Shown here piece after piece: positions 5,108 through 45,350 of a stretch of DNA of 64,000 nucleotides. The notes below the pieces were generated by a model, which was not told the DNA's origin, did not search any database, and was given only the letters and a program-made list of their open reading frames with translations. Each line of letters opens with the position of its first letter. The first letter of the stretch is position 1. The position numbers and the translations under genes were made by a program. The stretch is from Escherichia coli (lineage in GTDB: Bacteria > Pseudomonadota > Gammaproteobacteria > Enterobacterales > Enterobacteriaceae): the NCBI GenBank assembly GCA_032372955.1, contig GCA_032372955.1_4725.1, one strand, 5' to 3'.

Positions 5108-5734
5108 ATGAGCAAGAATAAAGACCAACGTTCTGCAAAAATGGACGAGGAGATTACTGCGGTAGAAACCACCGTTGCAGATGCTCCGGTTAGTGATGTT
5201 GTAGCACAGCCGGAAACGGTCGCTGTTGAGAAGAAGGAAACCGTTGTTGAAGAAAAGCCTGCGAAACCAGCAGTGAAAGAATCGCCAGCTGTTTCTATCG
5301 TGGCTTCTCGTGCCGCAACCCTGGTTGCTCCGTTCCAGAAATATGCGGAAGAAATGGGTCCGACCATGCCGCAAACACCGCAGTCGTTGATCCGTCATCA
5401 GCGGTCTTTAATGTCTGCTTTCCGCGCGTTACTGGATGTGGATAATCCTGAGGTTTTCCGCACCGCCTTTGCTGATATTCTGAAAATCTGGAAAGATAAC
5501 AGCGAAGGGGCATTTAATGCAAACCGTTATCTGTATCGCGGTATCGATAACATGCCGCTGGACTACCATACCCGCATGGCTTTCCTGACAGTACTGCGTC
5601 TGATGGATGCGATCTATGATGAAAGCCGTCGCCAAGTTGAAATCCGCGCTATCGACCTTAATATCGCAATTCCTGAAATTGCTTACTTCGATACGCGTAA
5701 CTATCTGGCGGGTTACATGCGTCGCTTTGCATAA
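5108..5734 (+). CDS. Hypothetical protein (208 aa) with A/E/V-rich N-terminal region
   Basis: ORF with AAGGAAATAAAC before the ATG; host-like codon usage. Confidence 0.55.
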   Translation: MSKNKDQRSAKMDEEITAVETTVADAPVSDVVAQPETVAVEKKETVVEEKPAKPAVKESPAVSIVASRAATLVAPFQKYAEEMGPTMPQTPQSLIRHQRSLMSAFRALLDVDNPEVFRTAFADILKIWKDNSEGAFNANRYLYRGIDNMPLDYHTRMAFLTVLRLMDAIYDESRRQVEIRAIDLNIAIPEIAYFDTRNYLAGYMRRFA

Positions 5735-5862
5735 CGTCTAAGGCGACGTAACGGGATTGCTGTCGTTACGACGTAGGAGGTGATCCTGATCTCCCTCACT
5801 CGCGGGGTGATGCGATAATCGTCGTGAGCTTGTCGTGAGAGATTCTCATTGCGGTCATAAAC

Positions 5863-5947: not shown

Positions 5948-6349
5948 ATGAACGAAACACTCGAACAACCCGCAATCTATCGTTGGACATCCGTTTGGAA
6001 TTATGTTTCTTTTAGCGTTGACACCGCAATGCAAGCCGTAATGGATTATAAGAATACCGGCAAAACGAACGAATGGTTAGTCATGCCCTGCGGCGACCTT
6101 ATTCGTACTGAAGGAATGTATTTCCCTAATGCCGGGAAAGACCGCCGTATCCAGGACAGGATGCGTACGACGATTCTGACGAATGGTGACGTCATGATCG
6201 AATGTTGGGCTGATTACCCCATTGATCGTGAACACCAGGATGAAATCTACCAGCGTTTACGCGATGAAATGGTTGCTGCAACGAAGCGGTATTCCTGTCG
6301 CGTTAAGCTGTATTGTTGGTTAAACGGCGTTGCCGTCCACGACATTTAA
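5948..6349 (+). CDS. Hypothetical protein (133 aa)
   Basis: ORF bracketed by two hairpin-TATGC elements. Confidence 0.5.
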   Translation: MNETLEQPAIYRWTSVWNYVSFSVDTAMQAVMDYKNTGKTNEWLVMPCGDLIRTEGMYFPNAGKDRRIQDRMRTTILTNGDVMIECWADYPIDREHQDEIYQRLRDEMVAATKRYSCRVKLYCWLNGVAVHDI

Positions 6350-6350
6350 T

Positions 6351-6407
6351 CTCTCCCTCTTCCCACCGTCCTCTTGAAGGATGGGGGGGGGGGAGGTTTC
6401 TATGCTG
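6351..6407 (+). terminator. GC-rich hairpin containing an 11-G homopolymer, followed by TATGCTG
   Basis: Starts immediately after the stop at 6349; G run at 6383..6393; TTTCTATGCTG at 6397..6407. Confidence 0.45.
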
Positions 6408-6428
6408 TTTTTATTTCGTGTTAACGCA

Positions 6429-6452
6429 GTTTATTTCACGACTACATTACCT
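6429..6452 (+). promoter_or_regulatory. Conserved promoter-like box GTTTATTTCACGACTACATTACCT (copy 1 of 3)
   Basis: Near-identical to 45327..45350 and related to 51812..51830; lies upstream of the small-gene block starting at 6569. Confidence 0.5.
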
Positions 6453-6473
6453 TCATGATGTCATGCATCATGA
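6453..6473. promoter_or_regulatory. Inverted repeat TCATGATG-tcatg-CATCATGA directly after the promoter-like box
   Basis: 8-bp arms are exact reverse complements with a 5-nt spacer; operator-like position. Confidence 0.35.
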
Positions 6474-6568
6474 ACGCGACGCGTAAGCGTTACCTTAGTG
6501 ATAAGAGCAAAATATCTTATCATCTATTTAAGACAATTGCAATCAATCCAATATAAAAGGATGTCGAG

Positions 6569-6994
6569 ATGTTACAAGCTATAACCGGGCATATTACCGC
6601 TAACTATATCACCGTTGTAGAATTTCTACGTAAACGAAAATACGAAAAACAAAACCCAATTCTTGAAGATGATACGTACAAAACAAAAATCTTTCGCGTC
6701 AATCGCAATACAACCGTCGCAACATCTGAAACAGGTTACACGGTTTATATCGATTGTGATGGATTAATCCCTAACGTTAAAGCGCGTGCGGCAACACTGT
6801 TAAAAGTCAAAGCGTTGCTAGATAAAAACAGGCCGCGCGTCATGGGTTTTGACGGCAAAGACATTGCTTTTGTTTATCACTTCGACAAACGTTATTCATT
6901 TTTCCAGTATTACAGCCGAGACGGTCTGTTAACCCATAACGGACCGGCGGTTGAGATCTACAGTCGTTATGCCTTATATGCATCACTGAATTAA
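6569..6994 (+). CDS. Hypothetical protein (141 aa)
   Basis: ORF with AAAGGATGTCGAG before the ATG. Confidence 0.5.
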   Translation: MLQAITGHITANYITVVEFLRKRKYEKQNPILEDDTYKTKIFRVNRNTTVATSETGYTVYIDCDGLIPNVKARAATLLKVKALLDKNRPRVMGFDGKDIAFVYHFDKRYSFFQYYSRDGLLTHNGPAVEIYSRYALYASLN

Positions 6995-7029
6995 TTTTCC
7001 TGCGTGTGTCTGACGTTTTGGTGGGGTTC

Positions 7030-7053
7030 GCCCCACCTTTTTTACAGCTTTTC
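7030..7053 (+). terminator. Rho-independent terminator
   Basis: GGTGGGGTTCGCCCCACC perfect hairpin followed by TTTTTT, 36 bp after the stop at 6994. Confidence 0.7.
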
Positions 7054-7091
7054 ATCATTAATTGAACTCAAGAGAATTTAAGGAATTCGAT

Positions 7092-7694
7092 ATGTCAATT
7101 ACCCAATTCGCGAACAGCATTCGTTCCAGTGAAACCACCGTACAGCTCCTTAAAGACGAGCTGCGTAAAGAACATGAAACCGCAGCCAACTATCTGAAAG
7201 AAATCGAAGCGTTAGTTTATCGTGAACTGGATAACGTAGAACGTTTCTTGCAGGCGGGTATGGATGAAAACATGGATCCAAACAAAGAAGTGTTAAAGCC
7301 ACGTGTTGACTTTTACGGTTCAGATATTGATCGTGCGATTATTCGCATGTATCCTAACGATTATGTCAAGGTCGACCTCAACCCAATTGTAACCAACATC
7401 AATATCGACCTGAAAGAAAAGATCGATCTGCCAAAACCCGATGGAGATATCATGCACGCGATGAATGCGATCCCGGTACTGAAAGCATCTATCGTCGACA
7501 CGCTCAAGGAACGCAATGAACGTCGTCTGGTTATCAGCGTGGATTCCGATTCGGTTTCTTTTTCGGTCTACATCGATGCTGACGGTGAAGAAGGAAATCC
7601 AAAAGACGTACACCGTCAACTTGCTGAGTATATCGGTGAGAGACCGAGTTTCGGTATGGGTTCCATGATCGTCAACATGTTAGAAAGCATGTGA
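7092..7694 (+). CDS. Hypothetical protein (~200 aa)
   Basis: ORF 7062..7694; the internal ATG at 7092 has an AAGGAA ribosome-binding site. Confidence 0.5.
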   Translation: MSITQFANSIRSSETTVQLLKDELRKEHETAANYLKEIEALVYRELDNVERFLQAGMDENMDPNKEVLKPRVDFYGSDIDRAIIRMYPNDYVKVDLNPIVTNINIDLKEKIDLPKPDGDIMHAMNAIPVLKASIVDTLKERNERRLVISVDSDSVSFSVYIDADGEEGNPKDVHRQLAEYIGERPSFGMGSMIVNMLESM

Positions 7695-7728
7695 TCGTCC
7701 TATCCCTAACTAACACTTATTTAAAGAG

Positions 7729-8241
7729 GTGAATATGAATAACGAAGTAAATAAGAAAGTTGAAATGCGTGGTATTTGCGGACGTCCTGCAGAGACGTCT
7801 AAAATAAAGGATAGAGTGATCGCCCTTCTCAACTTAGTGCCTGACACCACGCTGGTTACATGTTGGGATATTATCGATACAACGATACTGCGATTCGAGG
7901 CGAATTTAAGAAACAACAGTTGCTGGAGCCCTGCTTTGTCGGCTGATGATAAAGTCTATCTCGTAAACGAGACACCTGCTAAAGATAATAATCGTATCGA
8001 TCGTTGGCGTTTTGCGTTGCACGACAACATTGTTAGTATCGACGTTATACTGAGTATAACAGGTGAGTCGTGTATTGCCGTCAATGAAATAGCGGCATAT
8101 GCCAAACTAAAATTAGCACAGTGTTTTCATACACGCGTCCGTGGATTCGATATGCCTGTTACATTAACAATCAACGGGCACGACGGTTCAGGGCTGTTCG
8201 AATTCCACTACGATCCTGACAATGAAAACACAGAAGAGTAA
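7729..8241 (+). CDS. Small protein, paralog family A (member 1)
   Basis: C-terminal region (MPVTLTINGHDGSGLFEFHYDPDNENTEE) parallels the next two genes (LEYEPDNGTE, MEYSPDEEG). Confidence 0.5.
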   Translation: MNMNNEVNKKVEMRGICGRPAETSKIKDRVIALLNLVPDTTLVTCWDIIDTTILRFEANLRNNSCWSPALSADDKVYLVNETPAKDNNRIDRWRFALHDNIVSIDVILSITGESCIAVNEIAAYAKLKLAQCFHTRVRGFDMPVTLTINGHDGSGLFEFHYDPDNENTEE

Positions 8242-8312
8242 TTAATCAACGATATCGTGTCCCTTGTTAGGTGGGGCACGTATCGGTTAAAAGGTGTCGA
8301 AGGTGTTAAAAA

Positions 8313-8774
8313 ATGACGACATGGGATTCTTACGGTGAGCAGCTGGTAGAATCGATAATTAAAAGCTTTGAAATACTCGAAGTAAGATTGCAGGAGGACG
8401 GGTGCTGGGAATTATTTAACGAGCCCGATTCCGACTCCGAACCTTACTTCTACAACCTATCCGTTCCAACAACACAACACGGCAATGCTACGATTGTAGA
8501 TATCACCGATATCAGAGTTTACAATAATCGTATCGCTGTAATAGCACGACTGCCTTTTAGCGTAAACGGGCTTGCCGCAAAGCAACTTCTAATGTATACA
8601 GCCAACGAGACATTTGGTAAATGCATAAAGTCGCACGGTATCTCGTTCCCCCTAGCGATCGATTATGAATTATCGGATGGCTGCAATCTCGTTACATTGG
8701 AGTATGAACCGGATAATGGAACAGAGATAACAGCACTCTCTGTTCCGATGAAGATGAAGAAAGAGGTAGAATAA
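8313..8774 (+). CDS. Small protein, paralog family A (member 2)
   Basis: Shares RLPFSVNGL / LEYEPDNG blocks with 8774..9232; stop overlaps the next start (TAATGG). Confidence 0.55.
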   Translation: MTTWDSYGEQLVESIIKSFEILEVRLQEDGCWELFNEPDSDSEPYFYNLSVPTTQHGNATIVDITDIRVYNNRIAVIARLPFSVNGLAAKQLLMYTANETFGKCIKSHGISFPLAIDYELSDGCNLVTLEYEPDNGTEITALSVPMKMKKEVE

Positions 8775-9232
8775 TGGCAACAATGTATTCATTCGAATCT
8801 AACGTCAACGAACTTTTCGACTCGCATAGAGACACTTACGTCACGCCTGTTGCTGAGACCGTCACTCGAAGTATCGAATCCCTCAAACAAAATCTACGTA
8901 AATCCGATATTTGGTCGATGGGACATAGCGATAATGACGGGACGTATTTTACCATCGTGGAACGTATCCCAACAATACCGTTTCATAGCGTTTATCTTGA
9001 CAGTACCGTTGTTTTCTATGTTTACAAGCATCGTATCCTTATCAACATACAACTACCATTCAGCGTCAGCGGGGTTGATGCTATACGTCGGTTGGCTGAT
9101 GTTGCTAATAACGCATTTACGAAATCAGCTATGCCGTGCGATTTCCCTATTACATTAACACTCAAGTTTTCCGATGGTTATGAATTCTACACGATGGAAT
9201 ACTCTCCAGACGAAGAAGGAGCTAAGGGATAA
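8774..9232 (+). CDS. Small protein, paralog family A (member 3)
   Basis: QLPFSVSGVDA and MEYSPDEEG blocks collinear with member 2; same length class (152 vs 153 aa). Confidence 0.55.
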   Translation: MATMYSFESNVNELFDSHRDTYVTPVAETVTRSIESLKQNLRKSDIWSMGHSDNDGTYFTIVERIPTIPFHSVYLDSTVVFYVYKHRILINIQLPFSVSGVDAIRRLADVANNAFTKSAMPCDFPITLTLKFSDGYEFYTMEYSPDEEGAKG

Positions 9233-9234
9233 TC

Positions 9235-9999
9235 ATGTCTATCAAAGATAAAGTTCAGCGATTAATCGAATTCAACCAACAGTGCCGTATTGATGAACTC
9301 GTCAATCTCGTAAACCATATATTCGATAAGTTTGAAGAATCGTTAAACGACGATATGTGGGATACCGATATCGTAAACGGTAAAGCGTATCTTCGGAAAA
9401 CCGTAGCGGATACTGATAGGGTACAATTTCTGGAATTCGGTTTAACTGACGATGGTGCCGTTATTCATGCGTTATTACCCCCATGTTTAAATAACGTTGA
9501 TGTATTAACATACAAACAACATCTATCCGAAATTTTCCAAACAAGAACCTCAAAGTACGAATGTCATATTCGTTTAATGATGTGTTTCCCCATGGAATCT
9601 AACGATAGCAAAACAATAACATTCGATACAAAAGAAATCGCAGATGAAATCTACGTCGATAGCGCAAGGGCTCGTGTCGATCGTATCGTCGATATGTTAG
9701 TTGATGTTGCACGTTCATTCAGTTCAACATCAGACTCTAAGAATGGTTACGTATGTGATTACGTGCATGAACCGTTACGGCGCATCGTTGCAACTCAGAC
9801 AGACAAAGGCATCAATGTTATTGGGGTAGTAAGTGATTTGTCTATGACCGACAACGACAATCTTGAGTTGAGAAGGATCTTCGAAACACGATTGCGAAAC
9901 TGCGCATCGAGATACAAAACATCTGTCACCTTCACCCTCTGTTTTCATCCCGCCATCATGTCGTGGGTAACAACTGTTGATAAAGAAAACAGTAAATAA
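9235..9999 (+). CDS. Hypothetical protein (254 aa)
   Basis: ORF tightly packed after 8774..9232, with AGGAGCTAAGGGATAATC before the ATG. Confidence 0.5.
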   Translation: MSIKDKVQRLIEFNQQCRIDELVNLVNHIFDKFEESLNDDMWDTDIVNGKAYLRKTVADTDRVQFLEFGLTDDGAVIHALLPPCLNNVDVLTYKQHLSEIFQTRTSKYECHIRLMMCFPMESNDSKTITFDTKEIADEIYVDSARARVDRIVDMLVDVARSFSSTSDSKNGYVCDYVHEPLRRIVATQTDKGINVIGVVSDLSMTDNDNLELRRIFETRLRNCASRYKTSVTFTLCFHPAIMSWVTTVDKENSK

Positions 10000-10035
10000 G
10001 TAATATTTCCAAATCGATAACATTAAGGATAAAAA

Positions 10036-10431
10036 ATGAGCATTGTAGAATCCATCGTTAAAGCTGTTAACGACAACATCGATCATCCGCGCATTTCTAC
10101 CATGATCGATATTATTAAACAAGAAAAAACACCTGGTTCATACATTCGTTTTACCCGTTTTGATAGCAGCGATTTACTTTTCACTGTGAAAACCGAGGTT
10201 CACGAGCAACGTATCATCGTAGAGGTCCTGGTAAAGGAGAACAAAGAACTAGACTGGCACTCTGTTCGTGGTGACAGAGACGCGAGAAATTTACTTAAAG
10301 AACATCTCTGTAAAGTGGAAGAGAAATACAATATCCCATTTAGCTTAGAGGTCAATCTTTTCCCAGCGTACCTGCTCTGGTACGTCAGTAGTGAGAAGCA
10401 TGTCGAAACGACAACTGACGTCAAAGAGTAA
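10036..10431 (+). CDS. Small protein, paralog family B (member 1)
   Basis: MSIVESIVKAVNDNIDH and EEKYNIPFSLEVN blocks shared with 10468..10866. Confidence 0.55.
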   Translation: MSIVESIVKAVNDNIDHPRISTMIDIIKQEKTPGSYIRFTRFDSSDLLFTVKTEVHEQRIIVEVLVKENKELDWHSVRGDRDARNLLKEHLCKVEEKYNIPFSLEVNLFPAYLLWYVSSEKHVETTTDVKE

Positions 10432-10467
10432 ATATACGTGATCAATAACAAACTAGGGATTAAAAAG

Positions 10468-10866
10468 ATGAACGTTGCTGATTCCGTCGCTAAAGCGGTC
10501 ATCGATAACATCGACCATTCGTATATTCCCGCCATGATCGATCTGGTTAAGCGAGAAAACGTATCTGACTCGTTGATGTGCTTTAGTCGTATGCTCGACC
10601 AAGCTATACTCGAGGCTGTAAACGTCAGCGTACATCGCCAACATGTTCTCTTCGAGGCGTATATAAAGAACGACCAACATCGATTAGGCCACCACGCGTT
10701 ACGACACGACGAGAACGCGCTGGAGCAGCTAACGAAATGTCTTTATGCGCTGGAAGAGAAATATAACATTCCTTGCTCTCTAGAGGTTAACCATTACCCA
10801 GCGTGTCGGATTTGGCGTATCGCTGGTAAGAAAGGCGCGACGCCTTCAGCTGATTGCGAAGCATAA
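10468..10866 (+). CDS. Small protein, paralog family B (member 2)
   Basis: MNVADSVAKAVIDNIDH and EEKYNIPCSLEVN blocks; ATG at 10468 aligns with the paralog N-terminus (track start 10438 is GTG). Confidence 0.55.
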   Translation: MNVADSVAKAVIDNIDHSYIPAMIDLVKRENVSDSLMCFSRMLDQAILEAVNVSVHRQHVLFEAYIKNDQHRLGHHALRHDENALEQLTKCLYALEEKYNIPCSLEVNHYPACRIWRIAGKKGATPSADCEA

Positions 10867-10877
10867 CAACGTAGCAT

Positions 10878-10921
10878 AGCCCCTTCCCTAGCCATCAAGG
10901 CCGGGGAAGGGCTGTATACCG
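10878..10921 (+). terminator. GC-rich hairpin (CCCTTCCC/GGGAAGGG) followed by CTGTATACCG
   Basis: Immediately after the stop at 10866; same architecture as the other hairpin-TATGC elements. Confidence 0.45.
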
Positions 10922-10941
10922 ACTACACAGGAAAAGAAACA

Positions 10942-11394
10942 ATGAACATGAAAACCGACAAATCTATGAAAAAGCGCTTAGATCGTCTATTCAATGGTCC
11001 CACGGCAGCCTCCGTCGTTGAGGATGTTATTACTCAAGCATTCGAATGCATGGACAGAGGTCTTAACAGCATCCTTGGATGGCATCAGAAAGAACGTGAA
11101 GGTAAGCTCGTCCAGTGTTACAACGAACGTCACTTCGATGATAGTGGTATCAGTGGCGATTACTTTATCTATTTATTTCCCGATAAAATCACGATCAACA
11201 TTGAATTCGATAATGCGATGAACGATCAGGAAATAACATCGATGCGTCAAGCCGCGAAACAAGCCTTCGGACGTTGCGTGGAGCAATACGATCCCGATGT
11301 GTTTATCACATGCCGCATTTTCATCGAGCCGCGAAAATTAATTCAGCATATGTCCTACGGCACCACGTACACTGACGAATCCAACAAGGAATAA
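10942..11394 (+). CDS. Hypothetical protein (150 aa)
   Basis: ORF with AGGAAAAGAAACA before the ATG. Confidence 0.5.
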   Translation: MNMKTDKSMKKRLDRLFNGPTAASVVEDVITQAFECMDRGLNSILGWHQKEREGKLVQCYNERHFDDSGISGDYFIYLFPDKITINIEFDNAMNDQEITSMRQAAKQAFGRCVEQYDPDVFITCRIFIEPRKLIQHMSYGTTYTDESNKE

Positions 11395-11504
11395 AGAACT
11401 GAACCATAACAGCAACGCCAAGAGCCTTATTTGTAGTTTCAAGTATACCTCATCAAACATGAATTAACACGTCAATCAATCGACATAACCACTAGGAGCA
11501 TTCA

Positions 11505-11990
11505 ATGAACATCAACTTTACTATCGAATCCGGCGATTACATGAACGATCGTGATATCATCACATTCTACCGCGAGGATTTTCGCAACGCTATTCTTAAA
11601 ACGATTGAGGATGTCTTGGATCTCGCTGAAGATCAACTTAGCAGCATCACCCCTGAAACACACATAAAAGCACGCGACGAAGCTCTGGGTGATTTGTATA
11701 TACCTAAAGCCTGTGATCGCTGCTGCTTCACTGATTTCTTCGTGTCTACGCAAGCGGTCGTTACCGACGATGGGAAGCATCACGTGATCCTTATCTTGGC
11801 TTCTCATGAGCCTATGATCAATCACGCACTTTCTTTTACACCCGGGTACATCTATGCCCTTGCAAACAAACCGATGATCAACGAAATCATTGCTGACATC
11901 CTTAGTCAGATTTGCAAAGAACATGGATTCCTGTCTATTTTCTTAACCGACGCTGACTACAAAGTAACGGCTGGCAACGAACGCGCATAA
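11505..11990 (+). CDS. Hypothetical protein (161 aa)
   Basis: AGGAGCATTCA before the ATG and a hairpin terminator right after the stop; the overlapping minus ORF 11502..11924 lacks these signals. Confidence 0.5.
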   Translation: MNINFTIESGDYMNDRDIITFYREDFRNAILKTIEDVLDLAEDQLSSITPETHIKARDEALGDLYIPKACDRCCFTDFFVSTQAVVTDDGKHHVILILASHEPMINHALSFTPGYIYALANKPMINEIIADILSQICKEHGFLSIFLTDADYKVTAGNERA

Positions 11991-11991
11991 A

Positions 11992-12052
11992 CCCCACCCC
12001 TCCCTCCGGCTTCCGCCAGGGGGAGGGGCTTCGCATGCGTTTTCTTTTTTGT
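11992..12052 (+). terminator. GC-rich hairpin followed by a T-rich tract
   Basis: CCCCTCCCTCC..GGGGGAGGGG stem, then GCATGCGTTTTCTTTTTTG. Confidence 0.55.
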
Positions 12053-12690
12053 TAAACGAGGATCAACATACTTGATTCATTCGATGGTCCGCGCTTCCTC
12101 TTTTGGACGTGTTGCATCGAAATGCTCTAAGAGTTCAAACATCGATGGTGCTTTATAAACGATTCTACAGAAGTCTACAGCGTTCGTTTTACCTCCGGTA
12201 ATAAAGTTGATACCTAACTTCCTGAATTGATAGTCAGAGACGCCCTCAATGCGCGAGAGCTCACGAAAAACACACGCTCTGGATAGATTCAGCAGGATCT
12301 GCCCGTTGGGGTAGGACGAGGAGATGTCAAGCCATTGTCCACATAAGACGCAACTCTTATGCCGGTGTGTGCCACCCGCCTAAGCTTTCACTTAGGAGCA
12401 GACTATATCATGGAATGCTTTCGCACCCCTCCCGTGTTTGAGGACGCTTGTCCCTTACTCCGCGCGACCGGATAGTCGTTGAACGTTCTTCTTAGGTCTT
12501 ATTGCTGATGCATGCCCTTAGAAGCTTCGCTGCTGATTGCCCATTTATCGTTTCCTTACGAACATCCTTTCTGTTTTCTAACCTTGACGTTTTTCTTTTC
12601 AGAATCCGCTGTGGTCGAAAGGCTTTAGGGGGTTCCAGCAATTAACGGGAATCCGGTGGGGGCGTTATCCCCACCGGGACCTAAAATCGG
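12053..12690. other. ~640 bp tract with no ORF of 60 codons or more in any frame (candidate structured RNA, intron remnant or decayed gene)
   Basis: Lies between the terminator at 11992..12052 and the HNH gene stop at 12691; contains a TCTTATGCCGG motif and a hairpin at 12654..12678. Confidence 0.3.
12654..12678 (-). terminator. Hairpin just downstream of the HNH gene stop (no obvious U-tract)
   Basis: CCGGTGGGG-cgttat-CCCCACCGG, 9-bp perfect stem, 13 nt 3' of the minus-strand stop codon. Confidence 0.35.
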
Positions 12691-13797
12691 TTAAGCGTCG
12701 TTAAGACCGACAGGCATCGAACTGACATCTTCAAAATAGCGGAAGATGAATGGAGAACGACCTTCTGTGATCCTATTACGACAGTACTTCGTGATAGTCA
12801 CGTTAGAAACACCCGTCTCTCGTTGTGCGTGAGCAATTGATGCAAACACATAACGTTTACCGGTTTGTTTATCGATAGCCGCGATAGGGTGACCCATATC
12901 GTATTCCTGAAGACGACGATGTTGTCCGATCTGCCAATCTGGCCACGGAGTATCATCGTCAACTTCTTTGAAATACAGATTACAGGCTGGCATGAATTTC
13001 GTTTTACGCGTCATCCAATACCAAACACGTTTACGTTCCAAGCATGGATAAGCAGCACAACACGCGGCAATAGTCGGGAACACCCTAATCTCACCGGTAT
13101 TGTAATCCTTAACCTTAACAGGATGTAAGCCTTCCGTACGAAGACCATTATCAACTGCATGCTTATTGTTCTCAGAATAGGTTGTCCATTCAATGTTGCC
13201 AGGACGGTTATCCCATTTGATGCCGTTCTTGTGATTGATGATCTTTGTCATCACATCGGCACCGTATTCCAGGAACACGTAACCCATCGCTCGATGCTGG
13301 AACATTTGAGCTGTGAAACCGTTGTCATTAACAACTCGTTGAAAGAGATAACCAGCACGTTTATTTCGCGCCGGATCCCCTTTCGACCGTGTCCATGATT
13401 TCTTCTGCCCGGTTAAAAGACTAATAACTTCACCCTGTTCATTCATCACGTAATGCGTGAAGAACGGGACATAGTAATAGCCGGGATAACCTTTATGTTC
13501 CAACTTACCGTTCTTGAAACGATAAAGCAAATTCTCACGTTTGATGTTTTCTGGGTTCCCATCGATATACAACGAATGTGCTTCGTCTAAGAGATCTTCG
13601 TATATGTTAATAGCGTGCAGTTTACGCATTACCACAAGACCTGCGTCATACAGACCAGGACCACGGTACCAGTCAAGTTTGACGTACGATATTCCGTCTT
13701 CCACGATAAGCGGTAACGGCTTCATATCGAGGTCGAAGATACCTTCTTCGGAAACAACACATTCAGTAATCTTTGGATACTCATAACTACTTGACAT
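12691..13797 (-). CDS. HNH homing endonuclease
   Basis: HKNGIKWDNRPGNIEWTTYSENNKH is a canonical HNH block; the likely start is the second ATG at 13797 (MSSSYEYPK), 7 bp after AAGGAG; the track start is at 13824. Confidence 0.8.
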   Translation of the reverse strand: MSSSYEYPKITECVVSEEGIFDLDMKPLPLIVEDGISYVKLDWYRGPGLYDAGLVVMRKLHAINIYEDLLDEAHSLYIDGNPENIKRENLLYRFKNGKLEHKGYPGYYYVPFFTHYVMNEQGEVISLLTGQKKSWTRSKGDPARNKRAGYLFQRVVNDNGFTAQMFQHRAMGYVFLEYGADVMTKIINHKNGIKWDNRPGNIEWTTYSENNKHAVDNGLRTEGLHPVKVKDYNTGEIRVFPTIAACCAAYPCLERKRVWYWMTRKTKFMPACNLYFKEVDDDTPWPDWQIGQHRRLQEYDMGHPIAAIDKQTGKRYVFASIAHAQRETGVSNVTITKYCRNRITEGRSPFIFRYFEDVSSMPVGLNDA

Positions 13798-13864
13798 ATC
13801 AACTCCTTGCTCGCTTAGTATCATACTTATCGAGAAAGGAGGTAAAACTTAACCGATTTATTTC

Positions 13865-15364
13865 TTAATCCGCAACAAATAATCTAATATAACTTCTCAG
13901 GTTCGGCATATCCCAGAAGAGATGGATGCCGTTGTCCGCCATGAGATCGCATGGCAATGTGACGATATGTCCGGTTCGTGAGATAACCCACTTATCTTCT
14001 TCCTGGGTCATGTCGTCGGCGGTGCATCCCATGACTTCCCCACGGTTAAGATACACGAAGAAAAGTTTATCGCAGATACGTTTAGGGTTAGAACTGAAAT
14101 CTTTCAAATCCGACGCCGCCAAACGAATAGGGATGGTCATCGAATAGTCTTTTGTTTTCTGGTCCAACGCCTCGATGCCTTGGTTATCCCAAAGGTTATA
14201 TACACCGTAGTCGATTTGATGGTTCGTTTGCATCTCTTCGTGCCATGCAAGCTCCGTGAACCCTTCTGTACCAGGAATCGCTTTTAATTTCGTATGGCAT
14301 TTATTTCGCTCTAACACCGCATCGAGTGAATAACGTCCTTCATCCGGTCTTCCTAAACGAACGAACTTATAACCACACATCGCATCCATAACCTGATACG
14401 TGGCCATCGTATAAAACATCGGCCATGTTTGCTCAAGGGTAAGGTTGGTTTTACGACCTGAAGCAGATACCTTGTCGGTCTTCGGTGGTACCCAGCGAGC
14501 AATACGATACTTAGGTGGTACACGAGGATCGGAGAAAACATCCTCGGGACGATACCCTTCCTCGTTCAGTGCCTGGAGCATGCGCGGAATATCGAACGCA
14601 ATATTCCAGCCAAGGAGATAATCCGGCTGCCATTCGTGAACCTTCTGCATGCATTGGATGACCGCTTGCGCCGGGCTTTCTACGATTCGCACATCGTACT
14701 GATATTTTTCAAATGCGTGAGGATCTTCTTTGGTGTTCAGACGTTCGGCCAGGTAATATCGAATCTTCTCATGGGTTTTCTCAATCGCATTCGGAATATG
14801 ACCAACGAAGTCCTTGGTATAGCAAAGGATCGCATTGTATCCCATTGTAATAGACATACAGACGATCTTACCGTGTCCATGGACAACGTCGGTTTCGATA
14901 TCGAAACAGGCAATGGAAGCGGGTAATTTATCGACGTATTCCGGCCATTTTGTATTGTATTGGGTTTTTAAATAACAGCTGGCGCTAACGTCCGTGCCGT
15001 AGAGGTAGGGACTCCGTGCAAGTTGTTGTAAACGGGTGTTATCGTCAGCACGTCTTTTATAAAGCACCGAACTGATCTTTTCAACCAGTTCACTTTGACG
15101 GACATCGTAGCGTCGCACATGCGAGAGCTTCTCGCTTTCCTTTTTATATTTGTTCTTGCGTTTACTCTCTACCGTCACCCAAAACGGACGTTTGTAATTC
15201 TCGAAGAAGCGAAGGTTCGTCGCTTGCGTATTATCATCAAAGAACATGATCTCTTTTGCGATCATGAGGTCGTTCTTACTGCCATCGTTCGCTTCGTTAT
15301 AGCTGATGTGTCGACATTGAATACCGAGCAGTTTCTTCTTAGGTTTTCGTTCTTGTTCGCTCAT
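13865..15364 (-). CDS. DEDDy 3'-5' exonuclease domain protein (family-B DNA polymerase proofreading-like); no polymerase motifs in this ORF
   Basis: Exo I FDIET, Exo II WNIAFD, Exo III YNLWD (YxxxD) in canonical order and spacing; the ORF ends about 100 aa after Exo III with no DxxSLYPS or YGDTDS blocks. Confidence 0.65.
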   Translation of the reverse strand: MSEQERKPKKKLLGIQCRHISYNEANDGSKNDLMIAKEIMFFDDNTQATNLRFFENYKRPFWVTVESKRKNKYKKESEKLSHVRRYDVRQSELVEKISSVLYKRRADDNTRLQQLARSPYLYGTDVSASCYLKTQYNTKWPEYVDKLPASIACFDIETDVVHGHGKIVCMSITMGYNAILCYTKDFVGHIPNAIEKTHEKIRYYLAERLNTKEDPHAFEKYQYDVRIVESPAQAVIQCMQKVHEWQPDYLLGWNIAFDIPRMLQALNEEGYRPEDVFSDPRVPPKYRIARWVPPKTDKVSASGRKTNLTLEQTWPMFYTMATYQVMDAMCGYKFVRLGRPDEGRYSLDAVLERNKCHTKLKAIPGTEGFTELAWHEEMQTNHQIDYGVYNLWDNQGIEALDQKTKDYSMTIPIRLAASDLKDFSSNPKRICDKLFFVYLNRGEVMGCTADDMTQEEDKWVISRTGHIVTLPCDLMADNGIHLFWDMPNLRSYIRLFVAD

Positions 15365-45326: not shown

Positions 45327-45350
45327 GTTTATTTCGCGACTACATTACCT
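45327..45350 (+). promoter_or_regulatory. Conserved promoter-like box GTTTATTTCGCGACTACATTACCT (copy 2 of 3)
   Basis: 23 of 24 nt identical to 6429..6452; followed by AGGTGATAAG as in copy 3; ~200 bp upstream of 45559. Confidence 0.5.

Follow-up and report, generated by a model that had tools for sequence, protein, structure and literature searches.

The 64,000-nt stretch of DNA analysed here (the window; contig GCA_032372955.1_4725.1 of an Escherichia coli assembly) carries on its plus strand, between positions 7735 and 11394, an array of seven consecutive small genes. These genes encode a superfamily, specific to the lineage, of small alpha/beta proteins with one domain and 130–170 amino acids (aa), most of them acidic, which arose by repeated tandem duplication within a block bounded by homologues of gp75 and gp70 of Escherichia phage vB_EcoM_Goslar, a nucleus-forming jumbo phage of the Chimalliviridae. 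Profile comparisons and modelled folds indicate that all seven genes probably belong to this one superfamily. A first-pass annotation of the window had recognised five of them, as a family of three and a family of two, which proves to be an undercount.

The proteins that flank the array are 95–98% identical to Goslar gp77, gp76, gp75, gp74 and gp70, which marks the window as part of a Goslar-like phage, by sequence closely related to Goslar, a chimallivirus of E. coli. Over bases 7000–12000 the nucleotide identity to Goslar is 89.5%, with only 56% of the length aligned. Goslar-like phages are mostly met as persistent infections of Enterobacteriaceae isolates (bioRxiv 10.1101/2024.12.31.630880), a report that fits the occurrence of an identical copy of one array protein, encoded by g8774, in an E. 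coli assembly (238.6-kb contig, P0003).

Seven probable tandem paralogues

The genes of the array, named after their start positions, are as follows.

7735..8241, plus strand: member 1, g7735; 168 aa; gp73 orthologue, 75% identity
8313..8774, plus strand: member 2, g8313; 153 aa, isoelectric point (pI) 4.4; without Goslar counterpart
8774..9232, plus strand: member 3, g8774; 152 aa; gp72 orthologue, 86% identity
9235..9999, plus strand: member 4, g9235; 254 aa in two halves, the N-terminal ~125 aa being the family domain
10036..10431, plus strand: member 5, g10036; 131 aa; subfamily B
10468..10866, plus strand: member 6, g10468; 132 aa; subfamily B
10942..11394, plus strand: member 7, g10942; 150 aa; gp71 orthologue, 72% identity

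The genes are spaced by 2–75 nt or overlap, and their products are acidic (pI 4.4–6.0). The stop codon of g8313 overlaps the start of g8774 (TAATG), and g9235 begins 2 nt past the stop of g8774. For the first gene we most likely have to read the start as ATG 7735 rather than GTG 7729, because a ribosome-binding site, AAAGAGG, lies 5 nt upstream of this ATG and the database orthologues are 168 aa long.

The five open reading frames (ORFs) named in the first-pass annotation are all present on the plus strand, and its description of tandem paralogues with diverged middles is borne out by alignments and by shuffle-controlled scores. Similarity lies far above background, as none of 500 shuffles reached any observed score. 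Smith–Waterman z values were 46.2 for g10036/g10468, 24.8 for g8313/g8774, 14.6 for g7735/g8774 and 10.5 for g7735/g8313, and the corresponding BLASTP scores were 97, 63, 38.5 and 31 bits. The closest pair, g10036/g10468, shares 39% identity, and g8313/g8774 share 29%. The sequence blocks that had been claimed for g10036 and g10468 are there as described (VKAVNDNIDH/AKAVIDNIDH and EEKYNIPFSLEVN/EEKYNIPCSLEVN). Those claimed for the first three genes, LPFSV.G and EY.PD, occur in g8313 (LPFSVNG, EYEPD) and g8774 (LPFSVSG, EYSPD), but g7735 has ILSITGE and HYDPD at these places.

To delimit the family, a hidden Markov model (HMM) of subfamily A, built around the first three genes, was run over the 316 six-frame ORFs of the window. 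It added two ORFs only, g10942 (E 4.8e-4) and the N-terminus of g9235 (E 4e-3), and found no further copies elsewhere in the 64 kb. Profile–profile comparison with hhalign used alignments enriched with database matches and with related loci, whose arrays contain additional gene types labelled n1 to n5. The gp73, g8313 and gp72 types, the N-terminal half of g9235, n2 and n5 are joined with probabilities of 86–99.8%. Within this set, the g7735 group matched the g8313 group at 97.4% and the gp72 group at 94.9%, and the g9235 N-terminal half matched the n2 group at 96.8%, the n5 group at 91.8% and the gp73 group at 86.3%. Merged subfamily A in turn matched the gp71 type (g10942) together with the n1 type, of 166–169 aa, at 96.4% (E 1.4e-9, 119 columns). 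On these profiles g7735, g8313, g8774, the g9235 N-terminal half and g10942 fall into a gp71/72/73-like superfamily. The two groups of subfamily B matched each other at 100%.

The two-part gene g9235 is also related to g7735 in direct comparison (z = 7.1 against shuffles), and in one related phage, L010, it is represented by a 143-aa form that comprises the N-terminal half only. Its C-terminal half shows no link to the family (hhalign <3%), and self-comparison of g9235 gave no signal of an internal repeat. As negative controls we used gp70, gp74, gp75, gp76, n3, n4 and the g9235 C-terminal half, none of which showed membership (hhalign <3%); a visual 'strand-helix-strand' ending that these proteins seemed to share was dropped on the same grounds. 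DNA-level repeats within the array are negligible, being confined to a 27-nt remnant at the D[MF]P[VI]TLT motif, which marks the duplications as old.

A predicted fold common to subfamilies A and B

AlphaFold models were examined for one member of each subfamily. That of g8774 (mean predicted local distance difference test score, pLDDT, 80.7; predicted template-modelling score, pTM, 0.73) has the order H-H-E-E-E-E-H-E-E (H, helix; E, strand), and that of g10036 (pLDDT 84.3, pTM 0.79) the order H-H-E-E-E-(h)-H-E-E. Both consist of a helical hairpin, a 3–4-stranded antiparallel sheet, a long helix and a C-terminal hairpin. When the g10036 model was compared by Foldseek with all viral models of BFVD, its top match was A0A482GHL3 (E 4.9e-6, probability 1.0, template-modelling (TM) score 0.53). 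This protein is Goslar gp73, a member of subfamily A, and gp73 was also the sole significant BFVD match of the g8774 model (E 4e-11, TM 0.73).

By sequence, subfamilies A and B align at an hhalign probability of 19.5%, co-linear over 67 columns. The junction between the long helix and the following strand carries a common motif, which reads DFPITLTL, DMPVTLTI or SFPLAIDY in A and NIPFSLEV in B. It is because of the matching secondary-structure order, the best match of subfamily B to gp73 and this shared junction that we regard the seven genes as probably forming one superfamily. Column entropy is lowest (0.04–0.6) in the N-terminal helical hairpin and in the strand after the long helix, and between the B paralogues it reaches 1.0–1.6 in the sheet and loops.

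Variation of the array among related phages

Ten related loci were compared. They share the conserved frame gp77-gp76-gp75-gp74 [array] gp70, within which the following gene orders were found (B, subfamily B gene; 8313 and 9235, genes of the g8313 and g9235 types).

Goslar: gp73, gp72, gp71
Window: gp73, 8313, gp72, 9235, B, B, gp71
L002: gp73, 8313, gp72, 9235, B, gp71, n1, n2
L004/L005: n3, gp73, gp72, 9235, n4, B, gp71, n1, n5
L006–L009: gp73, 8313-gp72 fusion, 9235, n4, B, gp71, n1, n5
L010: n3, gp73, gp72, 143-aa N-half-only 9235, n2
L014: gp73, gp72, 9235, B, gp71, n1, n5; gp70 absent
L015: gp73, 8313, gp72, 9235, B, gp71, n1, n5; gp70 absent

The number of genes thus ranges from three in Goslar to nine in L004, and the window alone among the ten loci has two B genes. 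In L006 (10500–11417), as in L007–L009, the g8313 and gp72 types form an in-frame fusion of 305 aa, seen on four independent contigs, because the stop codon in the TAATG overlap has been lost. L004 also carries a 79-aa fragment of n4. The gene n3, at the head of the array, encodes a basic protein of 122–124 aa (pI 9.5). Further small genes of the relatives remain unplaced (L010 6067–6522 and 9698–10001; L004 9027–9401). In L010 a 151-aa gene is inserted between the gp76 and gp75 homologues, and a 300-nt gap past the truncated g9235-type gene may hold a remnant of the C-terminal half.

Rapid divergence of the array, as suggested in the first-pass annotation, is evident from the members that the window has in common with Goslar, which are 72–86% identical in amino acid sequence, against 95–98% for the flanks. 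Ratios of nonsynonymous to synonymous substitution rates (dN/dS) are 0.13–0.57 in the array and 0.02–0.24 in the flanking genes, indicating that the array genes evolve under purifying but relaxed selection. Synonymous divergence is discordant along the locus. Between the window and L004, g10468 has a dS of 0.087 where the flanks have 0.6–1.0, and against Goslar the gp73 and gp71 genes have dS values of 0.51 and 0.80 where the flanks have 0.06–0.23. Such discordance indicates recombinational exchange, which makes the array mosaic in addition to fast-evolving.

Searches for known relatives

The first-pass annotation had found no recognisable domain, and this holds for Pfam, PHROGs, PADLOC, NCBIfam and the sequences of the Protein Data Bank (PDB). 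When the ten proteins of the block were scanned with Pfam at E ≤ 1, neither PF12699 nor DUF7941 was matched, and a PHROGs scan gave no match at all. For known anti-defence and defence families, which were represented by these general libraries only, PHROGs returned nothing, PADLOC matches were at chance level (E ≥ 0.014) and NCBIfam matches fell below the cut-off. The best E values against PDB sequence profiles, 0.11 for subfamily A and 0.95 for B, were not above chance. In tblastn searches of GenBank phages, subfamily A matched Goslar only and subfamily B, including g10036, matched nothing.

A profile search of 1.84 billion representative proteins gave 11 matches, of which 10 were Goslar-like; the other, a repetitive 1,905-aa protein, was taken as spurious. 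In a word-indexed search of 5.8 billion clusters, matches occurred only in E. coli, Salmonella and Shigella assemblies or on metagenome contigs of ~236–260 kb. Orthologues of g7735 were found in 60 database clusters, and g8313 is known from 5 only. Across these databases the family is confined to Goslar-like phages of Enterobacteriaceae. A literature search for Goslar gp70–74 by name found no paper discussing them, and no characterisation or family description of gp71–73 was found in the literature searched.

Several specific identities were considered and rejected. Foldseek matches to nuclease folds of the PD-(D/E)XK kind (herpesvirus UL24/ORF20, YqaJ) reached TM scores of 0.25–0.33 with no conserved catalytic residues, and those to EEP nucleases reached at most 0.33 with no conserved catalytic set. 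The invariant columns of subfamily A are L41, W47 and P125 only, and include no acidic, basic or histidine set; in subfamily B, E63 and K67 lie four residues apart, which is not an ExK motif. Because there is neither such a set nor a family or PDB match, the proteins are predicted not to be enzymes. For the T3S4 domain (the C-terminal domain of YscP/PscP/FliK; PscP 5cuk, FliK-C 2rrl), neither a structural match at the level of homology nor the family signature was found, and for class I chaperones of type III secretion (CesT/SycE-like, of alpha-beta3-alpha-beta2 order) no structural match to a solved chaperone was found. Membership in PF12699 was discarded for want of a Pfam match and for the trace amounts of gp72 and gp73 in virions, against 50–2,150 copies for PF12699 proteins. 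DUF7941 (PF25613) also gave no match, though the same Pfam annotation detects this module in large neighbour genes of related loci. Finally, the identity of a T4-type internal protein was set aside on the contaminant-level presence of gp72 and gp73 in purified Goslar virions.

Transcriptional setting of the block

The array lies within a transcription block whose further genes and candidate signals are listed here.

6430..6450, plus strand: candidate early promoter element TTTATTTCACGACTACATTAC, with which the gp75-to-gp70 transcription block opens
6569..6994, plus strand: gp75 homologue, 141 aa, 96.5% identical to Goslar gp75; heads the early block
7020..7045, plus strand: intrinsic terminator-like hairpin and T-run between the gp75 and gp74 homologues, −14.2 kcal/mol; annotated terminator in Goslar
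7092..7694, plus strand: gp74 homologue, 200 aa, pI 4.7, 95% identical to Goslar gp74
8250..8285, plus strand: stable hairpin between members 1 and 2, −19.9 kcal/mol, z = −4.45
10876..10921, plus strand: hairpin followed by TGTATACCG, phiKZ-type terminator-like, between members 6 and 7, −26.4 kcal/mol, z = −3.9
11505..11990, plus strand: gp70 homologue, 161 aa, pI 4.6, 97.5% identical to Goslar gp70
11997..12049, plus strand: terminator hairpin and T-run closing the block, −27.7 kcal/mol; faces the end of the opposite-strand DNA polymerase gene

The gp74 homologue is the conserved left border of the variable array, found in 10 of 10 loci, and has no hhalign link to the array family. The gp70 homologue is the usual right border, missing in L014 and L015. 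Neither it nor the gp75 homologue shows detectable membership in the family (hhalign probability <1% in each case; the gp75 homologue was compared with subfamily A).

A 21-nt element, TTTATTTC(A/G)CGACTACATTAC (TTTATTTCACGrCTAyATTAC), is conserved in 8 related phages, 100–150 nt upstream of the gp75 homologue. The 64-kb window has two copies on the plus strand (6430–6450 and 45328–45348), where 0.01 would be expected, and the second lies between the gp48 and gp47 homologues. In Goslar, both positions are boundaries that mark the change from a nucleus-dependent gene to a block that is nucleus-independent (gp76|gp75 and gp48|gp47). Because both copies stand at such boundaries, we propose the element as a candidate early promoter for this genus, used by the injected virion RNA polymerase (vRNAP), a candidacy that draws on two occurrences in all. 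The element ends in ...TATATTAC, an ending that may resemble the early-promoter consensus of phiKZ. A scan for sigma-70 promoters found fewer sites than in shuffled sequences, a shortage that fits host-independent transcription. Directly after the element, at 6451–6494, lies a 44-nt insertion with TTACC(T) at both ends; the window, L004 and L006 carry it, and Goslar, L002, L010, L013 and L014 do not.

Stable hairpins follow gp76, gp75, g7735, g10468 and gp70. The phiKZ terminator consensus is a hairpin followed by YTTATKYYGT (PMC10914365), and two of these hairpins have a tail containing TATG or TATA that resembles it; the one at 10876..10921 may thus act as a terminator. Three G+C-rich hairpins (5790–5850, 6352–6412 and 10876–10921) carry a TTATG, TCTATG or TGTATA tail and are in this sense phiKZ terminator-like (PMC10914365). 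Their stems differ in sequence between relatives, with pairing kept.

The transcription class of the block can be read from Goslar RNA sequencing at 30 min with and without knock-down of ChmA, the nuclear-shell protein (bioRxiv 10.1101/2023.09.20.558163). Under knock-down the log2 fold change (log2FC) was +1.0 to +1.3 for gp070–gp075 (about +1.1 for gp075) and −3.2 to −6 for gp064–069 and gp076–081; gp044–047 were nucleus-independent and gp048 was not (bioRxiv 10.1101/2023.09.20.558163). The positive values mean that gp070–gp075 are transcribed without the nucleus. Membership in this class excludes a late structural role and is by itself no sign of a special function.

Abundance in virions

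Proteomic data on Goslar virions, like the expression data, cover the gp71–73 orthologues; g8313, g9235, g10036 and g10468 are lacking in Goslar. By liquid chromatography–tandem mass spectrometry, copies per virion were about 166 for gp70, 8 for gp74 and 3.7 for gp71 (bioRxiv 10.64898/2026.04.21.720040). For gp72 and gp73 the figures were about 0.5 and 0.4 copy, from one peptide each, and both ranked beside subunits of the non-virion RNA polymerase (nvRNAP) and a helicase, at contaminant level (bioRxiv 10.64898/2026.04.21.720040). The first-pass annotation had proposed that stoichiometric presence in virions would speak against a host-directed role; gp72 and gp73 are not such components and, given these amounts, are not structural. 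The neighbouring gp70, with ~166 copies per virion, is nonetheless in the class transcribed independently of the nucleus. L014 and L015 lack its homologue altogether, so this abundant virion-associated protein appears dispensable in the clade.

Proposed function and alternatives

The most likely role of the array proteins, with chances that we consider about evenly balanced, is that of non-enzymatic binders of host proteins that act early in infection, for counter-defence or takeover. A host-interaction or anti-defence function, which the first-pass annotation had also suggested, would be consistent with the nucleus-independent class and would fit acidic proteins without catalytic motif. Synthesis in the host cytoplasm would begin within minutes of infection, and the proteins would act as stoichiometric binders of host proteins, not as enzymes. 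Their targets would most likely be defence or other strain-variable host factors; defence systems are the most economical choice because the phage is otherwise uniform and defence repertoires vary widely among its hosts in the Enterobacteriaceae. The N-terminal helical hairpin and the 'hydrophobic-P-x-[ST]-L' junction from helix to strand may serve as a common scaffold or oligomer interface, with specificity carried by the divergent beta-sheet and loops. Neighbouring paralogues probably form hetero-oligomers, as suggested by the overlapping stop and start codons (TAATG), the 2-nt gap, the natural 8313-8774 fusion and the two-part g9235. The repertoire of each phage strain would then tune it to the hosts that it meets.

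Several points weigh against this proposal. None of the described anti-defence or takeover proteins was found to resemble any member, in sequence or in structure. The nucleus-independent class is a large one, comprising 146 of 249 Goslar genes unchanged by the knock-down (bioRxiv 10.1101/2023.09.20.558163), so that belonging to it says little in favour of a specialised early role. No pairwise dN/dS ratio reaches 1. The copy numbers of gp71 (~4) and gp74 (~8) are in the range of low-copy virion proteins such as the vRNAP subunits, which makes packaging of some members possible. Goslar lacks orthologues of subfamily B and g8313, so that for these the expression and virion data are extrapolated, and the link between A and B draws on predicted structures, one Foldseek match at TM 0.53 and an hhalign probability of 19.5% only.

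A more specific form of the proposal, which we hold only tentatively, is that the array represents a previously unrecognised fold family of modular, hetero-oligomerising inhibitors. These would be cytoplasmic at the vesicle stage that precedes the nucleus and would be directed against host immunity that senses proteins (STAND/Avs-type sensors, say, or others acting at the early infection vesicle), with a different host variant as the counterpart of each paralogue or fused pair. If so, the repertoire of three to nine genes would act directly in setting both the strain-level host range and the lifestyle of persistent infection.

The same features could reflect conflict between phages, or work within the phage itself. 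Proteins acting on co-infecting or resident chimalliviruses, through superinfection exclusion or incompatibility, would diversify under phage–phage conflict. Related phages probably do meet often, given that Goslar-like phages are mostly found as persistent infections (bioRxiv 10.1101/2024.12.31.630880), the mosaic dS values reflect recombination among these phages in the array region, and an intron with a homing endonuclease, a known inter-phage weapon, adjoins the block. No functional tie between that intron and the array is apparent, however, and no member resembles a known exclusion protein or has a membrane segment or nuclease motif, and we regard this explanation as unlikely. We attach a similarly small weight to the array proteins being adaptors or chaperones for phage proteins (early-vesicle cargo, or components of the nuclear shell or of import), with paralogues that co-evolve with their phage partners. 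A small two-layer alpha/beta sandwich is of a type common in adaptor and chaperone domains, tight translational coupling and fusions point to complexes, and transcription is early. Yet the rest of the genome is highly conserved (flanks 95–98%; weighted gene repertoire relatedness, wGRR, >0.7 across the clade), so that no equally variable phage partner is evident. Goslar, moreover, manages with three members and L010 without subfamily B and gp71, which fits a core phage process poorly.

Packaging and injection of the proteins at low copy number, in the manner of T4 internal proteins or the PF12699 inner-body paralogues of phiKZ, so that they act right after ejection, is distinctly improbable. 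The neighbour gp70 is present at ~166 copies, gp74 (~8) and gp71 (~3.7) come near the vRNAP subunits (~7–8), and two families of packaged paralogues, PF12699 and DUF7941, already exist in chimalliviruses. Against this stand the single peptides of gp72 and gp73, at ~0.5 and ~0.4 copy the level of the contaminant nvRNAP subunits and helicase, the lack of any Pfam signal of PF12699 or DUF7941, and a nucleus-independent class unlike that of the surrounding structural genes. Decay of functionless duplicates by neutral turnover in a permissive region would account for the variable content, the truncated g9235 form of L010, the 79-aa n4 fragment of L004 and dN/dS ratios above those of the flanks. But these ratios are all well below 1 (0.13–0.57), frames have stayed open over dS values of up to 1.4, the two modelled proteins fold with good confidence, ribosome-binding sites are conserved, as is translational coupling, and peptides of gp71, gp72 and gp73 have been detected, which leaves this explanation with hardly any probability.

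Comparison with known systems

The closest counterparts of the array are Goslar gp73, gp72 and gp71 (QBO63866.1, QBO63865.1 and QBO63864.1, all hypothetical proteins), which are the orthologues of g7735, g8774 and g10942 and occupy the same position between gp74 and gp70. Goslar has these three only, and the window adds g8313, g9235, g10036 and g10468. Like the array, the PF12699 paralogues (phiKZ gp92–97, 162 and 163; Goslar gp53–58) and the DUF7941 proteins (Goslar gp22, gp23 and others) are multigene families found only in Chimalliviridae and partly in tandem. Those families differ in being abundant virion proteins, at up to about 2,100 copies and some of them injected, whereas the array family occurs in traces. 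Their genes are also nucleus-dependent (log2FC about −3.5 to −5.4 for gp022 and gp023), and those of the array family are not.

T4-like phages have hyperplastic regions and an IPI–III locus, clusters of small accessory genes that evolve fast and vary in content from one close relative to the next. In T4 an N-terminal capsid-targeting sequence directs the internal proteins into the capsid, from which they are later injected, and at least one of them, IPI*, is an anti-restriction protein. The array resembles this locus as a variable cluster of small genes, but packaging of gp72 and gp73 is argued against, and there is no relationship in sequence or fold. T7 Ocr and ArdA are small, acidic, non-enzymatic proteins that bind host defence proteins at the start of infection, and are helical DNA mimics. 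The likeness of the array proteins to them is one of size, charge and timing only, as the array fold is an alpha/beta sandwich; Pfam, PHROGs, PDB and fold searches gave no similarity to Ocr or ArdA. The array is therefore a new family within a known kind of locus, the hyperplastic accessory-gene arrays of large phages, with a fold that has no detectable relative.

Once formed, the phage nucleus shields nucleus-forming jumbo phages from DNA-targeting immunity; their means of surviving the minutes before that, and the factors behind their host range at the level of strains, are poorly understood. No other stretch found in this clade, otherwise very uniform, varies as much as the array, which falls in the pre-nucleus transcription class. 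Goslar is a tractable system for pursuing it, as RNA-targeting knock-down, GFP localisation and virion proteomics are in place. Even if these genes were no more than accessory genes of the usual kind, three gains would remain, namely a new and defined family, a better annotation of the locus and a candidate early promoter for the genus.

Neighbouring features of the window

The DNA polymerase gene downstream of the block, on the minus strand at 12080–15364, is interrupted by a group I intron with an HNH/NUMOD1 homing endonuclease.

15364->13865, minus strand: polymerase exon 1, 499-aa ORF
13824->12691, minus strand: homing endonuclease ORF
12704->12379, minus strand: group I intron (Rfam Intron_gpI, 70.1 bits, E 1.6e-16)
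12331->12080, minus strand: polymerase exon 2, 100% identical to residues 500–583 of the uninterrupted 583-aa polymerase of L014

The intron is absent from L002 and L014, and in the Goslar record only the 499-aa polymerase ORF and the endonuclease are annotated. Upstream of the block, the ORF at 5108–5734 is a homologue of Goslar gp77 (about 95–97% identity), a capsid decoration protein of which 60 copies are modelled in the 2026 virion structure (bioRxiv 10.64898/2026.04.21.720040). The G+C content of positions 6001–12000 is 41.7–43.9%, against 47.0% for the whole window, and is lowest in g9235 (39.6%) and the gp75 homologue (40.4%).

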